From the NCBI GenBank assembly GCA_030447305.1, contig JAUJPC010000002.1:384927-448926 (forward strand): 64,000 nucleotides of DNA, read 5' to 3'. The stretch comes from Actinomycetota bacterium (GTDB lineage Bacteria; Actinomycetota; CADDZG01; JAHWKV01). The stretch's first letter is position 1, and every line of letters starts with the position of its first letter. Both the position numbers and the translations under genes were made by a program. Below, in pieces: positions 1-41,674 of the stretch. Under the pieces are notes generated by a model that did not search any database, was not told the origin of the DNA, and saw only the letters and a program-made list of their open reading frames with translations.

Positions 1-1257
1 CGGGAAGCCCAGTCGGTTGCGTCGCTCAGCCACCCCAACCTGGTGGGCGTCTTCGACATCGGGGCCGACGGGGAATTTCATTACATCGTCATGGAGTACG
101 TCGAGGGGTCCACGCTCGACGTGGCGATCCGGCGGGAAGCCCCTATGGCGGCCGATCGAGTCACCGGAATCACTCTGAGCGTGTGCGAAGGCCTTGGGGT
201 AGCCCACAGCAGGGGCATAGTCCACCGCGACATAAAGCCGGCGAACATCATGATCGAGCCCAACGGCCGGGTGAAGGTGATGGACTTCGGCATTGCCAAG
301 ACGAAGATCGAGGGGCTGACCCAGGTAGGGGCGGTGCTCGGAACCGTGAGGTACCTGGCGCCGGAGCAGGCCTACGCGGCACCGGTCGATCGCCGTGCGG
401 ACATCTATGCGCTCGGCTGCGTCATGTACGAGATGCTCACCGGACGGCCCCCCATTAGCGGCGACAGCCTCATCGAGATCGCCAACAAGCTGATGACCGA
501 GCAGCCGCCGCCCCCATCGGCGCTCGTCCCGGAGGTTCCGGCCGGTCTGGAGCGGGTGGTGATGAAAGCGCTCGCCAAGAATCCCGATAACCGGTACTCC
601 GACACCGACTCGATGCGGCTTGACCTGGGCGGCCTCGCACCGGCGGGGGCCGCGGCCGCGGGGGCGGACGCCACAGCGGTTTCCGGGTCGAGCTCCACCG
701 TTGTGCAGACGCGGCCGGAGCGGACCCAGGTGATGCCGGGAGGCCCGGCCGGAGAGCCGCCTCGGCGGCTCGGGCTTTTGGTGCTGGGCGTCCTGCTCCT
801 TGCAGGAGGCGCCATCGCGCTGGTATCCGACCGCTTGGGATCCGACTCGCCGACTCAGACACCCAGTCCCCTCCCCCTGGAGTCACCGTCTCCCGCCTTC
901 TCGCCTGCTCCCCCCCGGTTGCCGGCGCCGGCGCCGTCTCCAACCCCCCCTTCCGAGGGCGGGGCGAACACGGCCCGGGACCAGGCGCTGCAGACCTCTG
1001 AGGCTAGGATCGAGAGCATCCTGCGTGGCGGGGTTCAGTCCGGGGAGGTGTCCGACCGGGCAGAGGACCAGATACTCGCCGAGGTGGGGAAGGTGGTATC
1101 CGAGAACGAGAAAGGCGACGTCGACGATGCGCTGGACGCCGTAGAGGAGGCCCGCGAGGAGGTGGCCAAGTACGTCGAGCGCGACGAGGTGTCGCCATCC
1201 ATTGCCGCCGGCGTGAATGGCCAGCTCGATGAGATGGCGCAAGCGCTTGCGTCCTGA
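1..1257 (+). CDS. Ser/Thr protein kinase (PknB-like), 5'-partial, with TM segment and Pro-rich extracellular tail
   Basis: ORF 43..1257 stays open in frame back to position 1 (HPNLVGVFD); motifs HRDIKPANIM, DFGIAK, APE; hydrophobic LGLLVLGVLLLAGGAIALV. Confidence 0.85.
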   Translation, partial: REAQSVASLSHPNLVGVFDIGADGEFHYIVMEYVEGSTLDVAIRREAPMAADRVTGITLSVCEGLGVAHSRGIVHRDIKPANIMIEPNGRVKVMDFGIAKTKIEGLTQVGAVLGTVRYLAPEQAYAAPVDRRADIYALGCVMYEMLTGRPPISGDSLIEIANKLMTEQPPPPSALVPEVPAGLERVVMKALAKNPDNRYSDTDSMRLDLGGLAPAGAAAAGADATAVSGSSSTVVQTRPERTQVMPGGPAGEPPRRLGLLVLGVLLLAGGAIALVSDRLGSDSPTQTPSPLPLESPSPAFSPAPPRLPAPAPSPTPPSEGGANTARDQALQTSEARIESILRGGVQSGEVSDRAEDQILAEVGKVVSENEKGDVDDALDAVEEAREEVAKYVERDEVSPSIAAGVNGQLDEMAQALAS

Positions 1258-1699
1258 CTCCGGGCCGGCACGCCGGTGGTGGCCGGTCATCCTCCTCGGG
1301 GTGATGGCGCCGGCAGCCCTCGCGGCATTTTTCTACCTCCGCAGCGTGCAGCCATCCGGGATATCCGGGGGCGGCACGCGGGTTTCCGATGAGCAACTTC
1401 AGGACACGTACGCCGAGCTCTGCCGCACACGGGCTCTTGCGGCGACCGACCTCCCCGCTGCCCGCGATCTGTTTTTCGGACGGGTCCACTCGCCGCTTCA
1501 TGCGATCGCCCAGGCGGCTGAGGAGGTCGACCGGCCAGCCGCCGCCAGCATGCTGGAGGCTAAGAACGACGTCGAGCGGGCGCTCAATGAGCACGTACCC
1601 GCTACCGACACTGCTGCGGCGTTGGACCGTTTGGTGACTTCGACCACGGAGGCCTTAAGATCGGTAGGAGTGACCACTTCCGGCTGCGAGATCCCCTGA
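1217..1699 (+). CDS. hypothetical membrane-anchored protein; start uncertain (GTG 1301 or ATG 1304 possible)
   Basis: ORF with one N-terminal hydrophobic segment; overlaps kinase 3' end; no recognisable family. Confidence 0.3.
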   Translation: MASSMRWRKRLRPDSGPARRWWPVILLGVMAPAALAAFFYLRSVQPSGISGGGTRVSDEQLQDTYAELCRTRALAATDLPAARDLFFGRVHSPLHAIAQAAEEVDRPAAASMLEAKNDVERALNEHVPATDTAAALDRLVTSTTEALRSVGVTTSGCEIP

Positions 1700-1704
1700 A
1701 GAAC

Positions 1705-2676
1705 GTGAACCGCAAGCTCCAGGCCCTGGCGGGTTTGTTCGCGTTCTTGCTCCTGGCCTCAGGGTGCAACTCGGGTTCGTCCGATCCGGCAACGTCCAGC
1801 GCAACCGATGGCGACCAGCTCGCACCGCAGGTTGCCAGCTATGACCTCGCGGTCGGCAAGCAGAGGTTCCTGGTGGGCCTTTTGTCGCAGGACACCGAGC
1901 TGGTGGGCGGAGGAACGGTGAACTTCAAATTCGCCTACTTGGGCACTCGGTCCGAGCAAACGGCCGGCGAGGTGGTCGCCGAGTCCAAGGCCGCCTACCT
2001 TCCCATCCCCGCCGAGGCCGGTGGCCCGGAGCCGGAGGTGCCGGACAAACCGTCCATTCTGTCGGGCACCCGAGGAAGCGGCGTGTACTCCACCGATGCC
2101 ACCTTCGACCGGGCGGGATTTTGGGGTGTGGTCATTGAAGCCGATGTTGAAGGCAAGGGGCGGTGGACCGGACGGTCCACCTTCGAGGTGTTCGACAAAC
2201 ACCGCTTTCCCTGGATCGGCGAGGAGGCACCCCGCAGCGAGAATCTGACCGTCGACTCTACCGACGCTCCCCGCAGCGCAATCGATTCTCGAGCCCGGGG
2301 AGGCCAGGATGTTCCCGACCCAGAGCTCCACGGAATGACCGTCGCCGCCAGCATTGCCTCCGGCAAGCCCACTCTGCTGGTGGTGTCCACGCCCACCTAC
2401 TGCGTCAGCCGCTTCTGCGGCCCCATCACCGACATGGTCCAGGGCCTGTCGAAGGAGTACTCGAACGAGGCCAACTTCGTGCATATCGAGGTGTGGCGGG
2501 ACTTCGAGCGCAAGGAGGTCAACCGAGCAGCTGCCGAATGGGCCTTTCGCGATGACTCTGTGACGGAGCCCTGGGTGTTTCTAATCGGAGCCGACGGCAA
2601 GATATCCGGTCGATGGGACAACGTGGCCACGAGGAGAGAGATCGAGCCCGCACTGAAGGCTCTAAAAGCCTCGTGA
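1705..2676 (+). CDS. putative lipoprotein with thioredoxin-like C-terminal domain
   Basis: Signal peptide with lipobox-like LLASGC; Cys pair in TPTYCVSRFCGP; GTG start. Confidence 0.5.
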   Translation: MNRKLQALAGLFAFLLLASGCNSGSSDPATSSATDGDQLAPQVASYDLAVGKQRFLVGLLSQDTELVGGGTVNFKFAYLGTRSEQTAGEVVAESKAAYLPIPAEAGGPEPEVPDKPSILSGTRGSGVYSTDATFDRAGFWGVVIEADVEGKGRWTGRSTFEVFDKHRFPWIGEEAPRSENLTVDSTDAPRSAIDSRARGGQDVPDPELHGMTVAASIASGKPTLLVVSTPTYCVSRFCGPITDMVQGLSKEYSNEANFVHIEVWRDFERKEVNRAAAEWAFRDDSVTEPWVFLIGADGKISGRWDNVATRREIEPALKALKAS

Positions 2677-2695
2677 CTGAAGGACGTCGCTCACC

Positions 2696-4888
2696 TTGAC
2701 CTCCACACCGCCGCAAACCCCAACGCACACCCGTCCCTCGGGCAACCAGAACGACCGTGGGATGCTGGCCCCCAGCTTCACGCTGCTGAGGCTGCGGGGA
2801 ATCCGCATCGGGGCCCACTGGTCCTGGCTGGTGGTATTCGGCCTTGTCGCGTGGTCCTTAGCGCGAAGGGTCTTCCCGCTGGCCTATCCCGGACTGGGCG
2901 GCCGGTCCTATCTGGGGATGGCGCTGGTGTCGGCAGTGGTCTTTTTCATCTGCATTCTTCTGCACGAGCTCGGTCACGCCTTCCGGGCACTCAAGGAGGG
3001 CATGAAGATCAATGACATCACCCTCTGGTTATTCGGCGGCGTGGCCCGATTCGAAGGGATGTTCCCCTCGGCGGGAGCCGAGTTCCGAATTGTGGCCGCC
3101 GGACCGTTGGTTTCGGTGGGGTTGGTGGGCGTCTTTGCCGGTCTCACCTGGGTGGGGGGCATGACCGGAGTGCCACCGGAGATACGTGGGGTGTGTGACT
3201 ACCTTGCCCGCATCAACCTGGTCGTCGTCATCTTCAATCTGGTACCGGCCCTTCCGCTCGACGGGGGCCGAATCCTGAGGGCCTGGTTGTGGAGCCGTAA
3301 GGGCAACTTCACGGGGGCCACGATATCCGCCGCCCGGGTAGGCAAGGGATTTGCGTACGTTTTGATGGCAGTCGGAGCGTATGAGTTCTTCGGCACCTAC
3401 GTAACCGGCGGCATCTGGCTCATCGTTATGGGTTGGTTCTTGTTGCAGGCGGCCCAGGCCGAGCAGAACTACGCGGTGGTCCGCCGGGCGTTCCAGGACA
3501 TGACGGTTGCTAACCTCATGACCCCCAACCCGGTTGTCGTCCCCTCCGATACGACACTTGACGAGTTCCTGAGCTTGGTCCAGAGCAGGGGCCACTCCAC
3601 CTATCCGGTGGTCGACGAGGGTGCACTGAAGGGCATGGTGTCCTTGAGAATGGCAGCCGATGTTCTTCCGGAACGGAGGTCTCACGCCAAGGTGGCGGAT
3701 CTCATGATGGAACCTATGGTTTTGGACGCCTCCACTCCCGTGGTGGAGGTCATCGAGCCGCTACGCATGCCTCCCGGCCGTGCCCTCGTCGTCGACGACG
3801 GCCGGGTAGCCGGGATCCTATCCATCGCGGACGTGATCAAGGCACTCGAGATTCGCCAGGCCACCACCGATGTTGAAAGCGGCGACCGGCGCCGCAACCG
3901 GGGAGTCATCTGGGTCGCGGCGGCGGTTCTGCTTCCCATCGTCGCTGTGATCTACCATCCTCCCGTCGTAGTCGTCTCGCCGGCCCCCGCCATCGACGTC
4001 ACCAACGACGTAAGGATCGACGGCGTCCCGGTAACAGATCTAAGCGGCCGTTACCTGCTGGTGGCGGTTCAGGTAGGGCGCCCCAACGCAATTCGTGCAG
4101 CGATTTCGTACCTCAATCCGGAGGTCCAGGTGGTTCCTCAGAGAGAGGTTCTGCCGGAGGGAGTCTCCGAAGCGGAATACCTGCGTGGTCAGGAGAGAGT
4201 TTTCGAGGAGAGCCAGAAGGCGGCGGCCGCCGCGGCCGCCCGGGCTGCCGGTCTGGAAGTAACGCTGAACGGCGCGGGGGCTCAGGTCATGGACATCGCG
4301 GAGGGATCTCCCGCCGAGGGAAAGTTGAGGGTGGGGGACGTAATAGTATCGGTCGACGGACAACCCATCCGCCTGGTCTCGGATCTCCTCGGCTTCACCA
4401 CTGTTCGTCCGGCCGGCACGGAGTTCGAGATGACCGTTCAGCGGGGTTCTGGAACCCGTACCGTTAATGTGCGCAACGCGCGGCTTCGAGGGTTCAACTC
4501 CACCAACACCGGAGTGGGCATAGTCGCCACCACCAAGGATCTGGACGTGAAACTTCCTTTTGAGGCGGAGTTCAAGAACCGTAGCATCGGGGGCCCTTCC
4601 GCCGGGCTGGTTTATGCGCTAGCGATCGCCGACATGCTTGATCCCGCCGATGTGGCGGAGAACCGGGATATCGCAGCCAGCGGAACCATTCAGCTGGACG
4701 GCCGGGTGGGTCCGGTCGGCGGCTTGCAGGACAAGCTGAGGGCCGCTGATGAAACCGGTGCCGACATCTTCCTTGTGCCCCAGAGTGAGCTGGACGACGT
4801 GTCCCTGCCCAACCGGCAGAGCGGGGTAAGGACCCTCGGCGTTGAAGATCTGGAGGATGCCATGGGCGTTCTGACCGGCCGGGTCTGA
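2696..4888 (+). CDS. site-2 protease (M50) with CBS pair, fused to TM-PDZ-Lon-like (S16, YlbL-type) module
   Basis: HELGH zinc motif in polytopic N-terminus; CBS-like region; second TM anchor; PDZ-like region; Lon-type serine motif SIGGPSAGLVYALAIADML; continuous 730 aa ORF. Confidence 0.7.
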   Translation: MTSTPPQTPTHTRPSGNQNDRGMLAPSFTLLRLRGIRIGAHWSWLVVFGLVAWSLARRVFPLAYPGLGGRSYLGMALVSAVVFFICILLHELGHAFRALKEGMKINDITLWLFGGVARFEGMFPSAGAEFRIVAAGPLVSVGLVGVFAGLTWVGGMTGVPPEIRGVCDYLARINLVVVIFNLVPALPLDGGRILRAWLWSRKGNFTGATISAARVGKGFAYVLMAVGAYEFFGTYVTGGIWLIVMGWFLLQAAQAEQNYAVVRRAFQDMTVANLMTPNPVVVPSDTTLDEFLSLVQSRGHSTYPVVDEGALKGMVSLRMAADVLPERRSHAKVADLMMEPMVLDASTPVVEVIEPLRMPPGRALVVDDGRVAGILSIADVIKALEIRQATTDVESGDRRRNRGVIWVAAAVLLPIVAVIYHPPVVVVSPAPAIDVTNDVRIDGVPVTDLSGRYLLVAVQVGRPNAIRAAISYLNPEVQVVPQREVLPEGVSEAEYLRGQERVFEESQKAAAAAAARAAGLEVTLNGAGAQVMDIAEGSPAEGKLRVGDVIVSVDGQPIRLVSDLLGFTTVRPAGTEFEMTVQRGSGTRTVNVRNARLRGFNSTNTGVGIVATTKDLDVKLPFEAEFKNRSIGGPSAGLVYALAIADMLDPADVAENRDIAASGTIQLDGRVGPVGGLQDKLRAADETGADIFLVPQSELDDVSLPNRQSGVRTLGVEDLEDAMGVLTGRV

Positions 4889-4902
4889 CTCCGGCCGCGA
4901 TA

Positions 4903-4926
4903 ATGGACCCGGTTGCCCGGGTCCAT
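4903..4926. terminator. hairpin between convergent genes (10 bp stem, no clear U-tract)
   Basis: ATGGACCCGG ttgc CCGGGTCCAT perfect inverted repeat between M50 fusion gene end and hsp20 end. Confidence 0.4.
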
Positions 4927-4945
4927 CGCCGGCTGAGAGTCCGCG

Positions 4946-5383
4946 TCAGTCGGTGCTTCGGACCTCGATCCGCTGCGGCTTGGCCTGCTCCATCTTCGGA
5001 ACTTCGATGGTGAGCAGTCCGTTGCTCATGGTGGCGTTGATCTTGGTCGAGTCACACTTCGGCGGCAGAGCTATTCGCCTCCCGAAGGGTCCGTAACGCC
5101 TTTCCACCCTGCGGTAGGCCTCCTGGTTGATGGGCTCGGCGAACCTACGGTCGCCCTTGAGGGTGAGCACGTCGTTCTCTACGGTGATGTCCACGTCGGC
5201 CGTTTGAACGCCCGGTAACTCTACGATGATCTGAAACTTTTCAGGGGTTTCCAGGATGTCGACGGCCGGTGACCATACGCCCTTCATCGCGGACTCGGCG
5301 GTTCCAAGCAGCCTGCTAACCTCGCCGCCGGCCTCGAACAGGTCCTGTAGGGGATCCCACCTTCTTGCCAACGACGCTTCCAT
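4946..5383 (-). CDS. Hsp20/alpha-crystallin family small heat shock protein
   Basis: Alpha-crystallin domain (FQIIVELPGV...LTLKG...GLLTIEVPK); start moved to internal ATG preceded by AGGAGG. Confidence 0.85.
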   Translation of the reverse strand: MEASLARRWDPLQDLFEAGGEVSRLLGTAESAMKGVWSPAVDILETPEKFQIIVELPGVQTADVDITVENDVLTLKGDRRFAEPINQEAYRRVERRYGPFGRRIALPPKCDSTKINATMSNGLLTIEVPKMEQAKPQRIEVRSTD

Positions 5384-5420
5384 TTGCGGCTCCTCCTTTC
5401 GAGACTCGTGTCCTGACTCC

Positions 5421-5449
5421 AGGGTAAAACCTGATACTAGACCTGTCAA
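5421..5449 (-). promoter_or_regulatory. candidate promoter for hsp20 (-35 TTGACA, 17 nt spacer, weak -10 TACCCT)
   Basis: Read on minus strand; about 30 nt upstream of RBS and ATG. Confidence 0.25.
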
Positions 5450-5530
5450 GTTTAATGATGCCTTCGTCAGCATAATTTTGTTGGGCCGAACACTTGCGGT
5501 GGAGCCGGAATTGGCCGAGGATGGCTACTG

Positions 5531-6322
5531 GTGGAACCATCTATCAAGACGCCGCCCGGCCGCTCTCTCGACGCCACGGTAATGGCTGCTGCCAAGGCCT
5601 TGTGCCTGATCGGCTTTCCGGCCATTCCGATGTTTGTCTACCTCAGCAACAAACACCCCTCCCTGGACGGGAGCGGCGCGGCCCAGCAGATCGGCCAGCT
5701 GGCGGACGCGGCCGGCACGTGGGCACAGGTCCACTTCGCATTCAGCGTTGGGGGCTTCCTGGGCCTTGCTGTGGTGTTGATCCTGCGAGGAGAGGTGGCC
5801 GAGAGGGCTCCGCAGCTATGGACGAACGCAGCCGCGGCCGTCGGAGTGGTGGGAGGCGTAATCTTTACCGGCACCGTCTTGATGGAGGTGACGGTGATAC
5901 CGGCGCTCTCCACCGCATGTGCCGCCTCGCCCGCCTGTCTGGGTCCCGACAACGCGGTCATGGTCGACGCCCTGGCCGATCAGGGCTGGAGGGTGCTTCC
6001 GGGTTTGACGGTGGGCGGCAGGACGTTGATGGTTGGGCTGGCTCTGCTGGCCCTGCTTGGAGTGCTGTACGGCTCGCTGAGGAAGTGGGAGGGCGCTGCG
6101 CTGTTCTTCGGAGCAGTGCTGGAGATAGTAGCCAACACCGGACTGCACGCCTGGGGGAACTTCCGGCTGGCCAGCGGCATGCCCGGAATGGCTGCGCTGG
6201 CCATTCTCGCCGCCGGATGCGGCATTGCCTACAGGTTGTTCAAGAGAGTGAACTCCGGAACCGGCGAACCGGGATCCCGTGGGGTTCAGGCGCCGCCACC
6301 GACTGAAAGCGTCCCGAGCTAG
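5531..6322 (+). CDS. hypothetical polytopic membrane protein
   Basis: Multiple hydrophobic segments; GC-rich third codon positions; start may be a downstream Met. Confidence 0.5.
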   Translation: MEPSIKTPPGRSLDATVMAAAKALCLIGFPAIPMFVYLSNKHPSLDGSGAAQQIGQLADAAGTWAQVHFAFSVGGFLGLAVVLILRGEVAERAPQLWTNAAAAVGVVGGVIFTGTVLMEVTVIPALSTACAASPACLGPDNAVMVDALADQGWRVLPGLTVGGRTLMVGLALLALLGVLYGSLRKWEGAALFFGAVLEIVANTGLHAWGNFRLASGMPGMAALAILAAGCGIAYRLFKRVNSGTGEPGSRGVQAPPPTESVPS

Positions 6323-6336
6323 CCGGAACCCGCAGG

Positions 6337-6960
6337 TTAACCGGTTTCGTACTCGTAGATCCGGCGGTCCAGCTCGCGGGCAGAGATACCCAGCTGCTGG
6401 GAGGCCCTCTCCACCACGTCGACTATCTCCGAGTCCGGTACGAGACGCTCCATGGCGTCGCAGACGAAGCTCCTGAGATGAGGCGCCGGCCTGATCGGTC
6501 CGTAGCCCTGCCGGGTGAGTATCGCTTCGTAAACTGCCAGGTTTAGTCCTTTCACGCGGCCCATGAAGTCACGGTAGGCGCTCGTCTTGGCCCAGTGGCT
6601 CAAGAATTCCTGATTGACCACTCCGCGGGCTTCGAAGTACCGGATCAGGTTGCGAAGCTCACTCACCCTGCGGGCGGCCTTGAAACCCCACAGGTCCGAC
6701 CCGCACTTGAGGTTCCCCTCGGGTGTGTCCGGGTAACGGGCCAGAAACGCCTTCAGGTCGTCAAGGTTACGGATCTCATCCCACCAACGGTCGCGGTAGG
6801 TCAGCAGAGCGGCGCGGACGTTCTCGGCCTTGGACTTGTAGTCTAGAACGGTCAGGAAAAGGTTGGTTATGTAGTCCTTCTGCACGTAGACGCCGCGCGC
6901 GGGAGGCAGCCCGCGACAAAGATATGCAAAGGCTCGGATTTCTTCGTCAGATACTCCCAC
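6337..6960 (-). CDS. hypothetical protein (start set to GTG at 6960 after GGAGGG; track ORF extends to 7347)
   Basis: Long ORF whose 5' part overlaps plus-strand ORF 7072..7509; internal GTG with Shine-Dalgarno chosen. Confidence 0.4.
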   Translation of the reverse strand: MGVSDEEIRAFAYLCRGLPPARGVYVQKDYITNLFLTVLDYKSKAENVRAALLTYRDRWWDEIRNLDDLKAFLARYPDTPEGNLKCGSDLWGFKAARRVSELRNLIRYFEARGVVNQEFLSHWAKTSAYRDFMGRVKGLNLAVYEAILTRQGYGPIRPAPHLRSFVCDAMERLVPDSEIVDVVERASQQLGISARELDRRIYEYETG

Positions 6961-7512: not shown

Positions 7513-8304
7513 CTAGTGGTACGAGTGCGCATCGTCGGGGAAGCGGCCGCCCTCAACGTCGTCCCGGAACGATTGGACGGCCTCGGTAATCGTTTGTCGA
7601 AGGTCGGCGTAGGCCTTCACGAACTTCGGAGGCGTCTCCGACCCCATGCCGAGGAGGTCGGTGATCACCATTACCTGACCGTCGCACCCGGAGCCGGCCC
7701 CGATACCGATCGTCGGGATGGCGAGCGACCGGCTGATGGCCGTCGCCAGATCGGCCGGGATGGCCTCCAGGAACAGCGCCGATGCCCCGGCCTTCTCCAT
7801 GCTCAGGGCATCGGAGTGCAGGCGGTCGGCAGCTTCAGGGGTACGGGCCTGGACGCGATATCCACCTAGAGCATGAACCGACTGAGGAGTGAGGCCGAGG
7901 TGAGCCATCACGGGTATGCCGTGCTCCACCAGCGCCTGAGTCAGCTGCAGGCGCGGCCCTTCCAGCTTCACGGCGTGCGCGCCGGCTTCCTTCAGGAAAC
8001 GGACGCCGTTGCGGAATCCTTCCTCCACGGATCCCTGGTAGCTGCCAAACGGCATGTCGGCGACGACCATTGCGCTACGGGCACCCCGGGCAACGGCTGC
8101 GGTGTGGTGGAGCATCTGCTCCATCGTCACCGGCAGAGTGGTCTCGTATCCGAGGACCACCTGGCCCAGCGTATCCCCCACCAAAAGAATCGGGATCCCG
8201 GCCTGATCGAGGATCGATGCAGTCAAAAAGTCGTACGCGGTCAGCACGGGGAATCGCCGGTTTTCAGTCTTGAAACGTGACAGGTCGCGAACGGTTACGC
8301 GCAT
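7513..8304 (-). CDS. panB: 3-methyl-2-oxobutanoate hydroxymethyltransferase
   Basis: Full-length match to PanB family (VLTAYDF, LLVGDTLG, GIGAGSGCDGQVMV). Confidence 0.9.
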   Translation of the reverse strand: MRVTVRDLSRFKTENRRFPVLTAYDFLTASILDQAGIPILLVGDTLGQVVLGYETTLPVTMEQMLHHTAAVARGARSAMVVADMPFGSYQGSVEEGFRNGVRFLKEAGAHAVKLEGPRLQLTQALVEHGIPVMAHLGLTPQSVHALGGYRVQARTPEAADRLHSDALSMEKAGASALFLEAIPADLATAISRSLAIPTIGIGAGSGCDGQVMVITDLLGMGSETPPKFVKAYADLRQTITEAVQSFRDDVEGGRFPDDAHSYH

Positions 8305-8470
8305 GGGGGTCCTCCTTCCGGTCCCGGGGCCTCGTGGCCTCCAAGCCTCAGTGAAGTTTAGCGTCCAGGGGCGAACTAGGGGCCTTCGGAGATATCATTG
8401 GAGTAGCGATCATTTGTTTTTGGGCCCTTTCCATGGCCCTTTTCTGACCAGCGAGGAAGCTTCAGTGACT

Positions 8471-36619: not shown

Positions 36620-37804
36620 ATGATGGAGTTCAACTGGGTCGACCTGGTGATACTGATCCTGGTGGTGAGCTCCGCGGCTCACGGGCTCGTGCAGGGAGCG
36701 GCCGTTCAGGTGTTCTCTTACGCCGGCTTCATTCTCGGCCTGATCCTCGGCGCGAAGCTGGGACCGATTGCCGGTCAGATGGTCGAGAATCCAGCCATGC
36801 GGATTCTCGTGGTGGTCGTGACCCTGTTTGCCACGGCCTCCCTGATGGGGACCATCGGCAAGTTCATCGGGGCCAAGGCAACCTGGACCGTCCCCAGGAG
36901 GTCGCCTCTCGGCACGATGAACTCTGTAGGAGGACTGGGAGTGGCCGTCCTGATGACGCTGCTCAGCACCTGGCTGATCGGCGGCATGCTGGCGCACATA
37001 CGCTTCGGCGAAATTGGTGCCGCTTTTCAGACCTCTAAGGTTATGCGAGGCCTTACCGAGAGGTTGCCGCCGGCGCCCGCCATCTTCTCGAGCATTCAGC
37101 GCAGCCTGCTGCCGTCGGGCTTCCCCCCGGTGTTTGCCGAGCTCGAACCGTCTCTCGCGCCCGAGGTTCCCGTCACCGGTAACCCCGATCTGGCGGCCAT
37201 CGTCCGCGCCGTGCGTCCGAGCGTCCTCAAGGTCACAGCCGATGGATGCGGCCGGCGTACCTCCGGGTCGGGGTTCGTGGCAGCCCCGGGATTGGTGGTG
37301 ACGAACGCCCACGTGGTTGCCGGCGTTGACCGTCCGTCCGTGATCGACTCCGCGGGCAGCCACCGGACCTCTGTGGTCTTTTTTGATCCCGAGATGGACC
37401 TTGCGGTGCTTCGCACCAGCGGACTCGCGGGCAGGCCACTCCCCCTGCGGCGGCAGGAGGCTTCCCGGGGCCAGCAGGGAGGTGTTCTCGGCTATCCGGC
37501 CGGCGGACCTTTTACCGCACAGCCCGGAGTGGTGCGTTCCCTTTATCGAGATGCCGTCGGACGTGACATCTACAGCCGCGAGCTGGTGGCCCGGAACGTC
37601 TACCAGATCGATTCGGAAGTTCGCCCCGGCAACTCGGGAGGGCCATTCGTGGCGCCGGGCGGCCAGGTGGTCGGCGTGATATTCGCCTCCTCCCTGGTCA
37701 GACCACAAATCGCCTACGCGCTCAGCTCCGTGGATGTCGCCGCTAGGGTCGACCAGGCACGGGCGGTCACCGCCGGTGTCGACACCGGTCCGTGCACCCG
37801 CTAG
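36620..37804 (+). CDS. membrane-anchored trypsin-like serine protease (MarP-like; CvpA-type N-terminal membrane domain)
   Basis: Four N-terminal TM helices; chymotrypsin-fold motifs VVTNAHVV and GNSGGP. Confidence 0.75.
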   Translation: MMEFNWVDLVILILVVSSAAHGLVQGAAVQVFSYAGFILGLILGAKLGPIAGQMVENPAMRILVVVVTLFATASLMGTIGKFIGAKATWTVPRRSPLGTMNSVGGLGVAVLMTLLSTWLIGGMLAHIRFGEIGAAFQTSKVMRGLTERLPPAPAIFSSIQRSLLPSGFPPVFAELEPSLAPEVPVTGNPDLAAIVRAVRPSVLKVTADGCGRRTSGSGFVAAPGLVVTNAHVVAGVDRPSVIDSAGSHRTSVVFFDPEMDLAVLRTSGLAGRPLPLRRQEASRGQQGGVLGYPAGGPFTAQPGVVRSLYRDAVGRDIYSRELVARNVYQIDSEVRPGNSGGPFVAPGGQVVGVIFASSLVRPQIAYALSSVDVAARVDQARAVTAGVDTGPCTR

Positions 37805-38865
37805 GTTCGAACGTGGCCGGCAGTGCCCGCCACGAGTTGATCTGGCGCCGCGCCACCTGGTGGACCGTCCTCTTCTCACTTCTGGGTTTGGTGAGCGTGC
37901 TGGCGACGTTCGTAAGGCTTCCGATTCTGGTCCTGGAGCCCGGGCCGGCTCCCGATGTTGCCAGGCGGACGAGGATCGAGGCTCCGACCTTTCCTTCTGA
38001 GGGGTCGATCCACCTAACGACGGCACAGGTCAACGATCCCAAGGGTGCAACCGGCAAGGAGGTGCTTGCTGCCATCTTCAATGCCAATCAAACGGTGTTT
38101 CCCCGGGAGGCCATCTACCCTTCGGAGCGGTCGGACGAGGAAACCGCGTCCATTCAGGCGGCCCAAATGACCCAGAGTGAGCTGGAGGCGGCGGTCGCTG
38201 CGTTGAACGAGCTCGGCATGGCCTACCGGCCTGAGGGAGTCTTCGTAACAGAGGTCTCGCCAAGTTCGCCGGCCGCTGAAAAGCTTGTCGCGGGGGACAT
38301 CATCACCGCGATTGACTCCGAGCCGGTGAAGGTGCTGCAGGATCTCACCAAGGAGCTGGACCGCAGACGCACCGGTGAACCGACCCGCCTGGAAGTTTCG
38401 CGCGGCAGGAAGAAGTTATCCCTCACCGTGAAGACGGTGGAACCGCCGTCCGAGAAGAGCTCCGCACTCGGAGCGGAGCTGGTTCAGTACAACAGGCCGC
38501 CCATCGACGTGTCGATATCGAGCCGGGACATCGGGGGCCCGTCGGCGGGTCTGATGTATGCCTTGTCGATCTATGACCGACTGGTTCCGGACGACCTCAC
38601 CGGAGGAAGAACCATCGCCGGCACCGGCACTATCGAAAACGGCAAGCGCAGCGGGGTGGTCGGGGCGGTAGGGTCGGTGAAGCTCAAGGTCAAGTCCGCC
38701 GGTCGCATAGGTGCCCGCGTCTTTCTGGTCCCCAAAAAGGAGGCCGAAGAAGCACGGGAATCTGCCGGTTCTCAGATGCAGGTGATCGCCGTCTCCACCC
38801 TCAGGGAGGCCATCGCCGAGCTGAAAAAGCTGCCGCCGTCCAAAGTCGCCCAAGAAAAGGCTTAA
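37792..38865 (+). CDS. PDZ domain-containing Lon-like protease (YlbL-type)
   Basis: TM anchor, PDZ region, Lon S16 motif DIGGPSAGLMYALSIYD; overlaps MarP-like gene by 13 nt. Confidence 0.75.
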   Translation: MHPLGSNVAGSARHELIWRRATWWTVLFSLLGLVSVLATFVRLPILVLEPGPAPDVARRTRIEAPTFPSEGSIHLTTAQVNDPKGATGKEVLAAIFNANQTVFPREAIYPSERSDEETASIQAAQMTQSELEAAVAALNELGMAYRPEGVFVTEVSPSSPAAEKLVAGDIITAIDSEPVKVLQDLTKELDRRRTGEPTRLEVSRGRKKLSLTVKTVEPPSEKSSALGAELVQYNRPPIDVSISSRDIGGPSAGLMYALSIYDRLVPDDLTGGRTIAGTGTIENGKRSGVVGAVGSVKLKVKSAGRIGARVFLVPKKEAEEARESAGSQMQVIAVSTLREAIAELKKLPPSKVAQEKA

Positions 38866-38926: not shown

Positions 38927-41674
38927 ATGGATCTATTGCCGGCTCCATTCCATTTCGCCGCCACCTTCCTTGTAACGGTCGCTGCGTTTGGAGGGACTTG
39001 GGTCACCATCTACCGGCCGCAGTACGTGCCGGACGGGACCGCGCGTCGCTTTTCCTTCGGTCTGGGGTGGGCGCTCCTAGCTCTCGGCGAGCTCCTTCAT
39101 GGGTCCCTGATAGCGGCGTCGGAGCAAAGTCCTGTCGCAATTACTTTCAGGATGGCTGCGTATGCCCTTCTGGTCGCCGGCTTGCAGCCTCTTGCTGTGG
39201 GAACTCCTGGGCGGACCGACCCCTCGGAGAGCGCCCCGCCCGGTCCGCCCCGGGGTTTGCCCGACTCAGGGTCCGATGCCCTGACGGACCGCCCCCCCGT
39301 CGTTCCGGCCGTCCGCCGCCTGCTCCTGGCGCTGTCCCTCTTCGTCGCGTCGGACGTGTCTTTCGTCACCGTGGACAGACTGAGCAGCGAGTCACCGGGA
39401 GGGCTGTGGTTCGCAGTTCATGCGCTCAGACTGGCCGGCGGCCTCGGCGTTCTCGCATGGCTCGGACAGGTGGTTCGTACTTCAATCCAGGCTCGGGTCG
39501 TGGCGGTCTTTACCGGACTGATGCTCGTAGTGGTCGTCGCCATCTCCGCGTCGATGACCCAGGTCTTCACCAACAACTTCAGCCAGGAGCTTCTCAACCG
39601 GGCACAGCGGGAAGGCGAGGTTCAACAAAGGATCCTCGAGGGTGTGACGGAGGAGGCGAAGAGTCAGGCACAGCAGGTGGCCCGAAGCGAGAGCGTGCGG
39701 CAGGTCTTTGCAACCAGGCCGGCTGCGCTCAAACAGGTTCTCGAGAGGCTGCAAGGGCCCGGGCAGGTCTTCGACGACGCAGATTTCATGGCGGCACTGG
39801 ATCCCCAGGGCGCACTTCTGGCGGTATCGGCCGTGGGGCCGGGCGGCCGGGACACCCTTGCGGTGGCGGATGCTCTCAACCTGGTGGGCACAGAGATCGT
39901 GCAGAGTGCTTTGGCGCGCGGGGACGCAGGGGAGTCGGTGGACACGTTGGGGCCGGGCAAGATCGCCGCCATCGGCGTGGCGCCGGTCTTCAACCCAGAG
40001 AACTCAGCGAAGATCGGCGTGCTGGTTACCGGCAGGCTGATCGACGTCGAGTACCTTCAGGAGCAGCGCTCGCAGGGTGAGGTCTTTCTGATCACGCGGG
40101 ACGAGGTTCTTGCGGGCACTTCCCGGGTCTCGGATGGAGTAATCCCCACCTCACGCGGGAGCGTCAGCACCTTGTTCGGTAGCGGCCGCCGCATCTCGAT
40201 ACTTTCCGAGGTGGGCAACGAAGAGCGGTTCAACTCGTACGTGCCGCTGGTGCGCGGCGACGAGGTGATCGGAGCCTTGGTTTTCAGCACGCCCTCCGGC
40301 GTGATCGGCCTTGAGCAGCAGAGGCTCGCCGCCCCGCTATTTTTCATCGCTCTTTGGGCCTCAGCCATGGGGGTGGGGCTTTCCCTGCTGTTCGGCTCAC
40401 GCATCACCCAGCCCATCCGCGACCTTACCGAGGCGGCCGACAGGGTCAGAGAGGGTGACCTCACCGCCAGGGTTTCGCCAAAGACCTTCGACGAGGTTGG
40501 CGTGCTCGGCGAGACCTTCGATCAGATGACCGTATCCCTGGCGCAGCTGACCCGAGATCTGCGGGACACCGCCGAGGAACAGGTTGAGTTGAGACGCCGC
40601 CTGGAGACCATCCTGCAGTCCATGACGGACGGCGTCGTGGCGGTCAACAACCATGGCCAGATTGTCGCCTTCAACCGCGAGGCCGAGCGCATCCTTGAGG
40701 TTGCCCAGTCCCAGGTGATCGGTCGGAACGTGAGAAAGGTCCTCCAGCTCAGGGACCCGGCCGGCCAGCCCGTCTCTCCCGCCATCTACGACCTGCAGAA
40801 AGGGTCGGTCAGCGGCACGGTCGCGAATCTCAGAAGCAACGTCTCCCGGCCGGTGGTGGTCACATCCGCACCGATCGAGGACGAGGCCGGAGAGGTGCTG
40901 GGCGCGGTGGCAGTTCTGCGTGATCTTACTCGGGAGGTGGAGATCGAGAAGATGAAGACCGAGTTCCTCGCCAACATCTCCCATGAGCTGAGGACGCCGA
41001 TAACCCCGATCAAAGGCTACTCCGACCTCCTGATACGCAGAGAGGTGTCCCGCGAGCAGCAGGTCACATTCCTGGAGGGCATTCTCTCCTCGGCGGAGCG
41101 GCTGGAACGCATCGTGGAGATGCTGGTGGACTTCTCGGCCATGGAGGCGGGCCGTCTGTCGCCCGACAAGGTGCAGGTGGACTTCGATCAGGTTACCGCC
41201 GAGCTGGTGGAGAAATGGTCGCAGAACGCACCGAAACACCAGTTCGAAAGGACCGGCTTCAACTCGCTTCCGACGGTTGCGGTTGACCGACGCCTGGTCC
41301 CGCTGGCCATCGGTGAGCTGATGGACAACGCGGTGAAGTTCAGCCCCAACGGCGGAAAGATCACCCTTTTGGCGGAGCACAACAAGAACGGGAAGGAAAG
41401 TACAGACGTGCGGATCTCGGTGATCGACGAGGGCATCGGCATGGACCGGAACCAGCTTTCCAAGATCGGACAGAACTTTGTCCAGGCGGACGGGTCTGAG
41501 ACCCGGGCGTACGGCGGGCTGGGGTTGGGGCTGGCTTACGTTCGCCGGATAGCGGAAGGCCACGGGGGACGCCTGGAGGTTGAAAGTCAGCCGGCCAGGG
41601 GATCCCGGTTCACTCTGGTTTTTCCGGCCGGCGGGGTACCGCCGAAGGTCAGGGAAGTCCTTGCGCGCACCTAG
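38927..41674 (+). CDS. sensor histidine kinase with large multi-TM N-terminal sensor region
   Basis: HAMP-like segment, PAS-like region, HisKA (EFLANISHELRTPITPIKGY), HATPase_c (GGLGLGLAYVRRI). Confidence 0.85.
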   Translation: MDLLPAPFHFAATFLVTVAAFGGTWVTIYRPQYVPDGTARRFSFGLGWALLALGELLHGSLIAASEQSPVAITFRMAAYALLVAGLQPLAVGTPGRTDPSESAPPGPPRGLPDSGSDALTDRPPVVPAVRRLLLALSLFVASDVSFVTVDRLSSESPGGLWFAVHALRLAGGLGVLAWLGQVVRTSIQARVVAVFTGLMLVVVVAISASMTQVFTNNFSQELLNRAQREGEVQQRILEGVTEEAKSQAQQVARSESVRQVFATRPAALKQVLERLQGPGQVFDDADFMAALDPQGALLAVSAVGPGGRDTLAVADALNLVGTEIVQSALARGDAGESVDTLGPGKIAAIGVAPVFNPENSAKIGVLVTGRLIDVEYLQEQRSQGEVFLITRDEVLAGTSRVSDGVIPTSRGSVSTLFGSGRRISILSEVGNEERFNSYVPLVRGDEVIGALVFSTPSGVIGLEQQRLAAPLFFIALWASAMGVGLSLLFGSRITQPIRDLTEAADRVREGDLTARVSPKTFDEVGVLGETFDQMTVSLAQLTRDLRDTAEEQVELRRRLETILQSMTDGVVAVNNHGQIVAFNREAERILEVAQSQVIGRNVRKVLQLRDPAGQPVSPAIYDLQKGSVSGTVANLRSNVSRPVVVTSAPIEDEAGEVLGAVAVLRDLTREVEIEKMKTEFLANISHELRTPITPIKGYSDLLIRREVSREQQVTFLEGILSSAERLERIVEMLVDFSAMEAGRLSPDKVQVDFDQVTAELVEKWSQNAPKHQFERTGFNSLPTVAVDRRLVPLAIGELMDNAVKFSPNGGKITLLAEHNKNGKESTDVRISVIDEGIGMDRNQLSKIGQNFVQADGSETRAYGGLGLGLAYVRRIAEGHGGRLEVESQPARGSRFTLVFPAGGVPPKVREVLART

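Follow-up and report, generated by a model that had tools for sequence, protein, structure and literature searches.

Two families of membrane proteases are the closest described relatives of the protein analyzed here. The CBS-class (group III) site-2 proteases (S2Ps), represented by MjS2P (3b4r), SpoIVFB (8vjl) and the S2P of A. fulgidus, have in common an M50 core of six transmembrane (TM) helices, in which HExxH and NxxPxxxLDG occur and a beta-hairpin separates TM2 from TM3, and one or more C-terminal cytosolic CBS domains, after which their chains stop. The Lon-like proteases YlbL (DdcP) of B. subtilis, SepM of streptococci and Rv3194c of M. tuberculosis are built from a TM anchor, a Lon-like N-terminal part, a PDZ domain and Lon_C, which bears a Ser-Lys dyad; an AAA+ module is absent. 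We analyzed an open reading frame (ORF) that joins these two architectures, located at positions 2696..4888 on the plus strand of a 64,000-nucleotide (nt) stretch from an Actinomycetota bacterium (assembly GCA_030447305.1, contig JAUJPC010000002.1, positions 384,927 to 448,926), which is referred to in its entirety as the window. In contrast to the first family, the fused protein continues beyond its CBS pair with a seventh TM helix (TM7) and ~310 amino acids (aa) of predicted extracytoplasmic PDZ/Lon-like protease. Its C-terminal half is organized like the second family, but the anchor is here the seventh TM helix of a polytopic metalloprotease.

We know of no substrates or activators of CBS-class S2Ps outside B. 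subtilis sporulation, and of only two jobs for YlbL-type Lon-like proteases, the removal of YneA and the trimming of a pheromone. No counterpart of the YlbL and SepM substrates (YneA and the competence-stimulating peptide (CSP) pheromone, respectively) was identified for the fused protein. YlbL is membrane-anchored and acts outside the cell, where it removes the single-pass, N-in membrane protein YneA (PMC6051672). MjS2P has no known natural substrate (PMC11486902).

The two activities are also found together in the two-protein cascades of regulated intramembrane proteolysis (RIP), namely DegS-RseP (E. coli), MarP-Rip1 (Corynebacterium/Mycobacterium) and SpoIVB/CtpB-SpoIVFB (B. subtilis), which use the same compartments for both activities as predicted here. 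Each of these cascades distributes its proteases over separate polypeptides, whereas here they form one chain for which sequential action is a proposal. The serine proteases belong to families S1 (DegS, MarP), S55 (SpoIVB) and S41 (CtpB); that of the fused protein belongs to S16. DegS acts upstream of RseP, on the substrate. MarP acts upstream of Rip1, likewise on the substrate (PMC11175481), and SpoIVB and CtpB act upstream of the CBS-class SpoIVFB, on an inhibitor (PMC11486902).

Group I S2Ps (RseP, RasP, Rip1) also combine M50 and extracytoplasmic PDZ domains in one polypeptide, as the fused protein does. The PDZ tandem of RseP is inserted between core TM helices, is non-catalytic and serves as a size filter, whereas the PDZ domain of the fused protein is predicted to sit after an extra C-terminal TM helix, within an active-looking serine protease. 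Assignment to the RseP type was rejected: the TIGR00054 model, whose cut-off is 147.55 bits, scored 25.8 and matched the PDZ region only, and the PDZ domain follows TM7. Surveys of S16 architectures in 2008 (PMC2605481) and of PDZ architectures in 2019 (PMC6411480) give PDZ+Lon_C and M50+PDZ separately and contain no M50 or CBS partner for Lon_C. No curated NCBIfam model covers the M50-CBS-PDZ-Lon_C architecture, and database labels are generic, NCBI using "site-2 protease family protein" and JGI a triple name in COG style. We found no description of this architecture in the open-access literature, although an earlier description elsewhere is possible. The component protease families are known, but their combination in one chain appears to be new.

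Domain structure and integrity of the fused gene

The gene and the parts of its product are the following:

2696..4888, + strand: fused gene, an uninterrupted ORF of 730 aa with a TTG start and AAGGA 10 nt upstream
2777..3493, + strand: M50 (site-2 protease) membrane core, aa 28-266, six TM helices with a beta-hairpin between TM2 and TM3
2963..2977, + strand: HELGH zinc-binding/catalytic motif (H90, E91, H94), at the end of helix 69-100
3236..3265, + strand: NLVPALPLDG motif (N181, P184 and D189, the third zinc ligand)
3497..3868, + strand: tandem CBS pair, predicted to be cytoplasmic, aa 268-391, from Pfam and structure matches
3869..3898, + strand: Arg-rich linker, the fusion junction, aa 392-401, with a low predicted local distance difference test score (pLDDT)
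3899..3958, + strand: seventh TM helix, aa 402-421, followed by a conserved Y-x-P-P
3959..4249, + strand: beta-rich N-terminal part of the Lon-like domain and long Ala-rich helix, aa 422-518, from the SepM_fam_S16 alignment and AlphaFold2
4250..4480, + strand: PDZ domain, aa 519-595, from Pfam and the YlbL PDZ structures 2kl1/2kjp
4481..4879, + strand: Lon_C (S16) proteolytic domain, aa 596-728, with Ser635 (4598-4600) and Lys680 (4733-4735) as the predicted catalytic dyad

An earlier sequence-only reading of this DNA had proposed a complete M50 protease with a CBS pair in the N-terminal part and a frame that stays open through a TM helix into PDZ and Lon S16 domains. This layout was confirmed in a single ORF, with M50, two CBS domains, the seventh TM helix, PDZ and Lon_C following one another along the 730-aa chain. 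Peptidase_M50 (PF02163) was matched with an E value of 6e-18 (65 bits, cut-off 27), the two CBS domains (PF00571) with 7e-17 (62 bits, cut-off 24), PDZ_2 with 1e-10 (aa 519-592; the PDZ_6 and PDZ models likewise exceed their cut-offs) and Lon_C (PF05362) with 2e-10 (aa 616-705; 40.8 bits, cut-off 21.1), while no AAA+ module was matched in the Pfam scan of the fused protein. Residues 630-648 carry the motif SIGGPSAGLVYALAIADML. The SepM_fam_S16 model (NCBIfam NF041438) aligns with aa 409-702 at 143.4 bits; its equivalog cut-off is 200, and the C-terminal half is therefore a member of the broader YlbL/SepM family rather than a SepM equivalog.

An AlphaFold2 (AF2) model, built on a 99-sequence alignment of homologues, has a mean pLDDT of 89.8 and a predicted template-modelling score (pTM) of 0.65. 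It places short strands, helices 43-63 and 69-100 and a beta-hairpin at 104-120 in the N-terminal region, further core helices at 126-157, 161-182, 189-202, 205-232 and 236-266, the CBS pair at 271-391, a low-confidence linker at ~392-401 and TM7 as helix 402-419, after which come the beta-rich segment, the long Ala-rich helix, PDZ and the core of Lon_C. For the membrane core, a profile search (E value of 9e-34 over profile positions 7-254) and Foldseek (template-modelling score of 0.83 on the target) both gave a match to MjS2P (3b4r), and SpoIVFB was also matched. The CBS pair resembles the CBS tandem of the A. fulgidus S2P (5g5r/5g5x) with scores of 0.81-0.85, and the PDZ domain matches the YlbL PDZ structures in a profile search. 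In every feature of sequence and structure compared, the N-terminal half is a CBS-class M50 protease. None of the structure matches is a solved chain spanning both the M50 half and the Lon half.

The seventh TM helix is indicated by a hydropathy peak at 409-427, by the AF2 helix and by P422/P423, which show no variation among the 18 and the 99 aligned sequences. It is the counterpart of the N-terminal anchor of YlbL, and it aligns with the TM anchor of a stand-alone YlbL-type paralogue encoded in the same window. This separate gene, which the sequence-only reading had placed at 37792-38865, does encode PDZ and Lon_C domains, and its product is 31% identical to the C-terminal half of the fused protein, TM anchor included.

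The N-terminal tail of the fused protein is rich in K/R. Across the 99 sequences, the linker preceding TM7 contains on average 4.1 K+R versus 1.9 D+E, while the 25 residues past TM7 contain 1.1 K+R versus 3.1 D+E. SpoIVFB and MjS2P have one common TM topology, and in SpoIVFB the CBS domain is cytosolic, under TM4-6 (PMC11486902). From this charge bias, the AF2 model and the homology to MjS2P/SpoIVFB and YlbL/SepM, we infer an N-in topology with a six-TM metalloprotease core, a cytoplasmic CBS pair, a TM7 that crosses the membrane from inside to outside, and the PDZ-Lon portion on the outside. A TM anchor directly before the serine protease is present, the charge bias favors N-in/C-out, and the predicted location of the protease is on the side where YlbL is thought to act (PMC6051672).

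Given this topology, a self-processing protein can be envisaged, in which the M50 core would cut TM7 in cis or in trans for a regulated release of soluble PDZ-Lon to the surface or the medium. The N-in orientation of TM7 that follows from the charge bias is typical of S2P substrates, the helix-breaking, invariant P422/P423 lie at the outer end of TM7, and a preprint (bioRxiv 10.1101/2020.02.24.963918) describes Rv3194c, the M. tuberculosis homologue, as exposed on the surface. However, stand-alone YlbL proteins show the same TM-xPP arrangement without any M50, and the motif is therefore not specific to the fusion. In addition, S2Ps generally require a short ectodomain on their substrate, and the one considered here has ~300 aa. 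We regard self-processing as quite improbable.

As to the integrity of the gene, the surroundings of the junction were examined for a missed stop or frameshift, and none was found. Both other reading frames are closed by stops at the junction, and the periodicity of G+C at third codon positions (GC3) is continuous in a single phase over the full ORF. A search for in-frame ATG, GTG or TTG codons between aa 381 and 417 found none, in agreement with the sequence-only reading, and an internal translation start at the junction was thereby ruled out. An independently assembled Logan contig encodes a protein identical to the fused product.

Conservation and inheritance of the fusion

A search of 5.8 billion clustered proteins (E<=1e-10) returned 715 homologues. 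The best 120 of the 715 all have 700-765 aa and the same domain architecture, with identities from 100 to 46%; all derive from Actinomycetota metagenome-assembled genomes (MAGs) in assemblies of NCBI, ENA, JGI and Logan. From a collection of species-representative genomes, the 80 best loci were taken; 27 carry the fusion, all in MAGs of Actinomycetota, Acidimicrobiales and Acidimicrobiia. A stop codon at the junction in orthologues had been named in the sequence-only reading as the result that would speak against it, and the junction is free of stops in 27 of the 27 fused loci. On the related question of whether the locus holds one gene or two, relatives carry either the fusion or the C-terminal half alone, never two adjacent genes. 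The description of the fusion as unusual holds relative to characterized proteases and fails among uncultured Actinomycetota, where the architecture is common.

The fusion also reaches to more distant sequences. When 1.84 billion representatives of 50% clusters were scanned exhaustively with HMMER, ~20 full-length fused representatives were recovered at that cluster level. Distant ones at 30-33% identity were recovered in addition, among them three (P0154, P0157 and P0183; 718-745 aa, 30-32% identity in alignment A3, described below) whose CBS region falls below Pfam significance.

Frame changes inside the fused gene, distant from the CBS/TM7 junction, were observed in two long-read MFD MAGs, at ~9568 in locus L021 and at ~8251-8363 in locus L027; they are most likely homopolymer indel errors and not real pseudogenes. 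They show that errors arise in such assemblies, which speaks for an artefact that joined two adjacent genes through a missed stop, a frameshift or chimeric assembly. Nevertheless, the changes lie away from the junction, and such an artefact is ruled out for all practical purposes by more than 120 independent full-length homologues from four sources (NCBI, ENA, JGI and Logan), the 27 open junctions, the continuous GC3 signal and the identical protein on the Logan contig (L081). The ORF at 2696..4888 is a genuine gene conserved across uncultured Actinomycetota.

Residue conservation was assessed in three alignments, A1 (n=18), A2 (n=99) and A3 (n=14), the last of which takes in ten homologues without a precomputed Lon_C match and the three distant representatives. 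H90/E91/H94 of HExxH, N181/P184/D189 of NxxPxxxLDG, S635 (in GGPSAG) and K680 are invariant in all three. The residues equivalent to Ser635/Lys680 in YlbL, S234 and K279, are required for its function in B. subtilis (PMC6051672). The alignments strongly support the view that both active sites look intact and, together with the domain analysis, that the product is a predicted single-chain, 7-TM bifunctional membrane protease combining a CBS-class S2P with a YlbL-type Ser-Lys protease.

The two halves have diverged together. Pairwise distances of the N-terminal and C-terminal halves in the 99 sequences are correlated (Pearson r=0.85, a value reached by 0 of 999 permutations in a Mantel test), and the halves were therefore inherited jointly and not shuffled. 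Over the same sequences, the linker between CBS and TM7 (E385 to W406) varies only between 17 and 24 aa. These comparisons give strong support to a fusion that is old and has been transmitted as one unit. In a neighbor-joining tree of the M50-CBS halves, built from the top 80 loci without bootstrap support, the 53 stand-alone sequences form one clade with zero fused members inside, a pattern that fits a single fusion or fission event.

Variants of the fusion and neighboring genes

The link between the M50 and PDZ-Lon portions is also found without the CBS sensor, in P0144 (604 aa), P0234 and P0251, and in ~15 more M50-TM-PDZ-Lon proteins of 589-673 aa recovered by a dedicated search. Because it recurs in this form, the link itself appears to be selected. 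Another M50-TM-PDZ-Lon fusion, P0160 (555 aa), has lost HExxH, which is replaced by SVLARAILRRLAAS, and retains NxxPxxxLDG-like, GPSGG and Lys motifs; it is likely a pseudo-metalloprotease variant. In P0232 (492 aa) and P0238 (581 aa), which have no M50, a domain that binds cyclic nucleotide monophosphates (cNMP) is located N-terminal to the TM-PDZ-Lon_C module, so that a cytoplasmic ligand sensor is joined to a predicted outward-facing protease.

These variants bear on the possibility of inside-out regulation, in which the M50 core would be mainly a scaffold while the CBS pair, as the sensor of a nucleotide, exerts control through TM7 over the outer YlbL-type protease, the main effector. The cNMP-binding fusions, the loss of HExxH in P0160 with its Ser/Lys motifs kept, and the constrained length of the CBS-TM7 linker would all agree with such an arrangement. 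On the other hand, no CBS-containing member examined departs from the M50 catalytic motifs, and the metalloprotease is therefore under selection as an enzyme; moreover, M50 fusions without CBS domains have no sensor. We consider inside-out regulation unlikely.

The C-terminal half is also encoded on its own. P0165 is a stand-alone orthologue whose upstream gene lies on the opposite strand, and the C-half gene of locus L084 is truly alone. Locus L085 (a JGI metagenome contig, 1-3030) is collinear with window positions ~2209-6948 and lacks both the M50-CBS segment and the Hsp20 gene: a CxxxxC lipoprotein gene is followed by a TM-PDZ-Lon gene, a DUF998-like membrane protein gene and the next gene. 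The TM-PDZ-Lon product (P0142) is 55% identical to the C-terminal half, and its gene has a GTG start directly after the stop of the lipoprotein gene. This locus probably arose from the fusion by deletion. Split-gene orthologues, with the two halves as adjacent genes, were rejected, the apparent single C-halves being either alone, as in L084, or without an M50-CBS segment, as in L085.

The genomic context was explored by tblastn of the window ORFs against the 80 loci, by a crude gene call and clustering of 142 neighbor proteins, and by inspection of two annotated contexts. The features that surround the fused gene, and its paralogue, are the following:

1705..2676, + strand: upstream gene, separated from the fused gene by 19 nt; its lipoprotein-like product has a CxxxxC at the C-terminus
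4889..4939, no strand assigned: hairpin in the 57-nt gap between the convergent fused and Hsp20 genes
4946-5473, - strand: Hsp20 gene, convergent with the fused gene
37792..38865, + strand: stand-alone YlbL/SepM-type paralogue, 357 aa, TM-PDZ-Lon_C

The product of the upstream gene has a signal peptide ending in LLLASGC and the C-terminal sequence YCVSRFCGP; no Pfam match or significant PDB relative was found for it. The gene is kept upstream of the fused or C-half gene only in close relatives (L001-L004, L015 and L085), and in their clade it is possibly part of the same operon as the fused gene. The hairpin has a minimum free energy of -35.1 kcal/mol (z = -4.7), none of 200 shuffles folds equally well, and a T-tract is absent; termination in both directions may be its role. 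A sigma-70 promoter scan found nothing. The Hsp20 gene adjoins or lies near the fused gene in L001, L003, L004, L015, L020 and L021. In the loci of P0077 (L082/L083), the fused gene lies between an upstream hydrogenase-maturation cluster (hypF, hypC, hypD, hypE) and a convergent downstream gene for a BON-domain protein, and a gene for an extracytoplasmic function (ECF) sigma factor and a 482-aa gene without a Pfam match on record are located ~6 kb downstream. Beside the stand-alone paralogue, a MarP-like protease gene (36620-37804, + strand), with a CvpA/Colicin_V membrane domain and a trypsin-like domain, overlaps the YlbL-type gene by 13 nt, and a large PAS/HisKA sensor kinase gene (38927-41674, + strand) follows it.

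Possible coupling of the two proteolytic activities and its meaning

In the well-studied bacterial S2P pathways considered, an extracytoplasmic serine protease, mostly PDZ-bearing, acts first, and for this reason we consider that both activities of the fused protein may be coupled in a RIP-like pathway, at what we judge to be even odds. By the same analogy, a self-contained RIP cascade, as the sequence-only reading had put it, would be a reasonable inference, and it is plausible from the predicted topology. In the mechanism that we tentatively propose, cleavage would begin outside the cytoplasm with the PDZ/S16 module, which would either shorten the ectodomain of a membrane protein of the single-pass, N-in type, like DegS and MarP, or remove an inhibitor, like SpoIVB/CtpB. 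The TM segment left over would next be cut by the tethered M50 core, with the tether handing the trimmed TM stub straight to the intramembrane active site, while the CBS pair would tune the activity to a cytoplasmic adenine-nucleotide-type ligand. To this complete single-chain RIP machine, with an S16/PDZ site-1 or inhibitor cut, an M50 site-2 cut and CBS nucleotide gating, we assign a probability of roughly 0.3.

Several observations weigh against this mechanism. No CBS-class S2P other than SpoIVFB has a known substrate, and SpoIVFB does not require that its substrate be cleaved beforehand (PMC11486902). Among the fused proteins and their parts, the serine-protease module stands alone at the syntenic L085 locus or joins a cNMP-binding sensor instead, the P0160 fusion is without HExxH, and the pTM of the AF2 model is only 0.65. 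No neighboring gene is shared family-wide across the 27 fused loci, where synteny is confined to close relatives, and no conserved substrate, anti-sigma factor or partner gene was found adjoining the fused gene in them; the genomic context therefore yields no substrate. Likewise, no YlbL-like gene was found within 8 kb of the 53 stand-alone M50-CBS genes (Thermoleophilia/Gaiellales, mostly Gaiellaceae), and operon-level support for a functional link is therefore absent.

The lack of a conserved substrate gene next to the fused loci would suit two co-localized but independent proteases, with different substrates and housekeeping or quality-control roles, for which the fusion only provides 1:1 expression and membrane placement. 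That the C-terminal half can stand alone (L084, L085), that the genome retains a second, stand-alone YlbL-type gene, and that stress proteins are encoded nearby in some lineages (Hsp20 at 5-6 loci besides that of the window, the BON-domain protein in the P0077 loci) point in the same direction. Nevertheless, the fusion has been kept down to ~30% identity with a tightly constrained linker length and co-diverging halves, it recurs in a CBS-less form, and co-expression alone needs no covalent link. Independence of the two proteases is, in our judgment, somewhat unlikely, and if it held, the fusion would be a curiosity of domain architecture only.

An ancient and widespread covalent fusion in which both active sites are conserved gives sequence-based grounds to suspect a shared pathway. 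The fused protein could serve as a convenient single-protein model for the question of how cutting outside the cytoplasm is linked to cleavage within the membrane and to a nucleotide sensor in the cytoplasm, and the hypothesis is testable in culturable Actinobacteria and Firmicutes that encode both proteases as separate genes (e.g. of the Rv2625c and Rv3194c types). If the proposed single-chain RIP machine is correct, stand-alone proteases of the YlbL/Rv3194c type would, by Rosetta-stone logic, be unrecognized upstream partners of CBS-class S2Ps of the Rv2625c and MjS2P types. The main use of the fusion is as Rosetta-stone evidence that ties together two protease families, in an architecture that is common yet uncharacterized in uncultured Actinomycetota.

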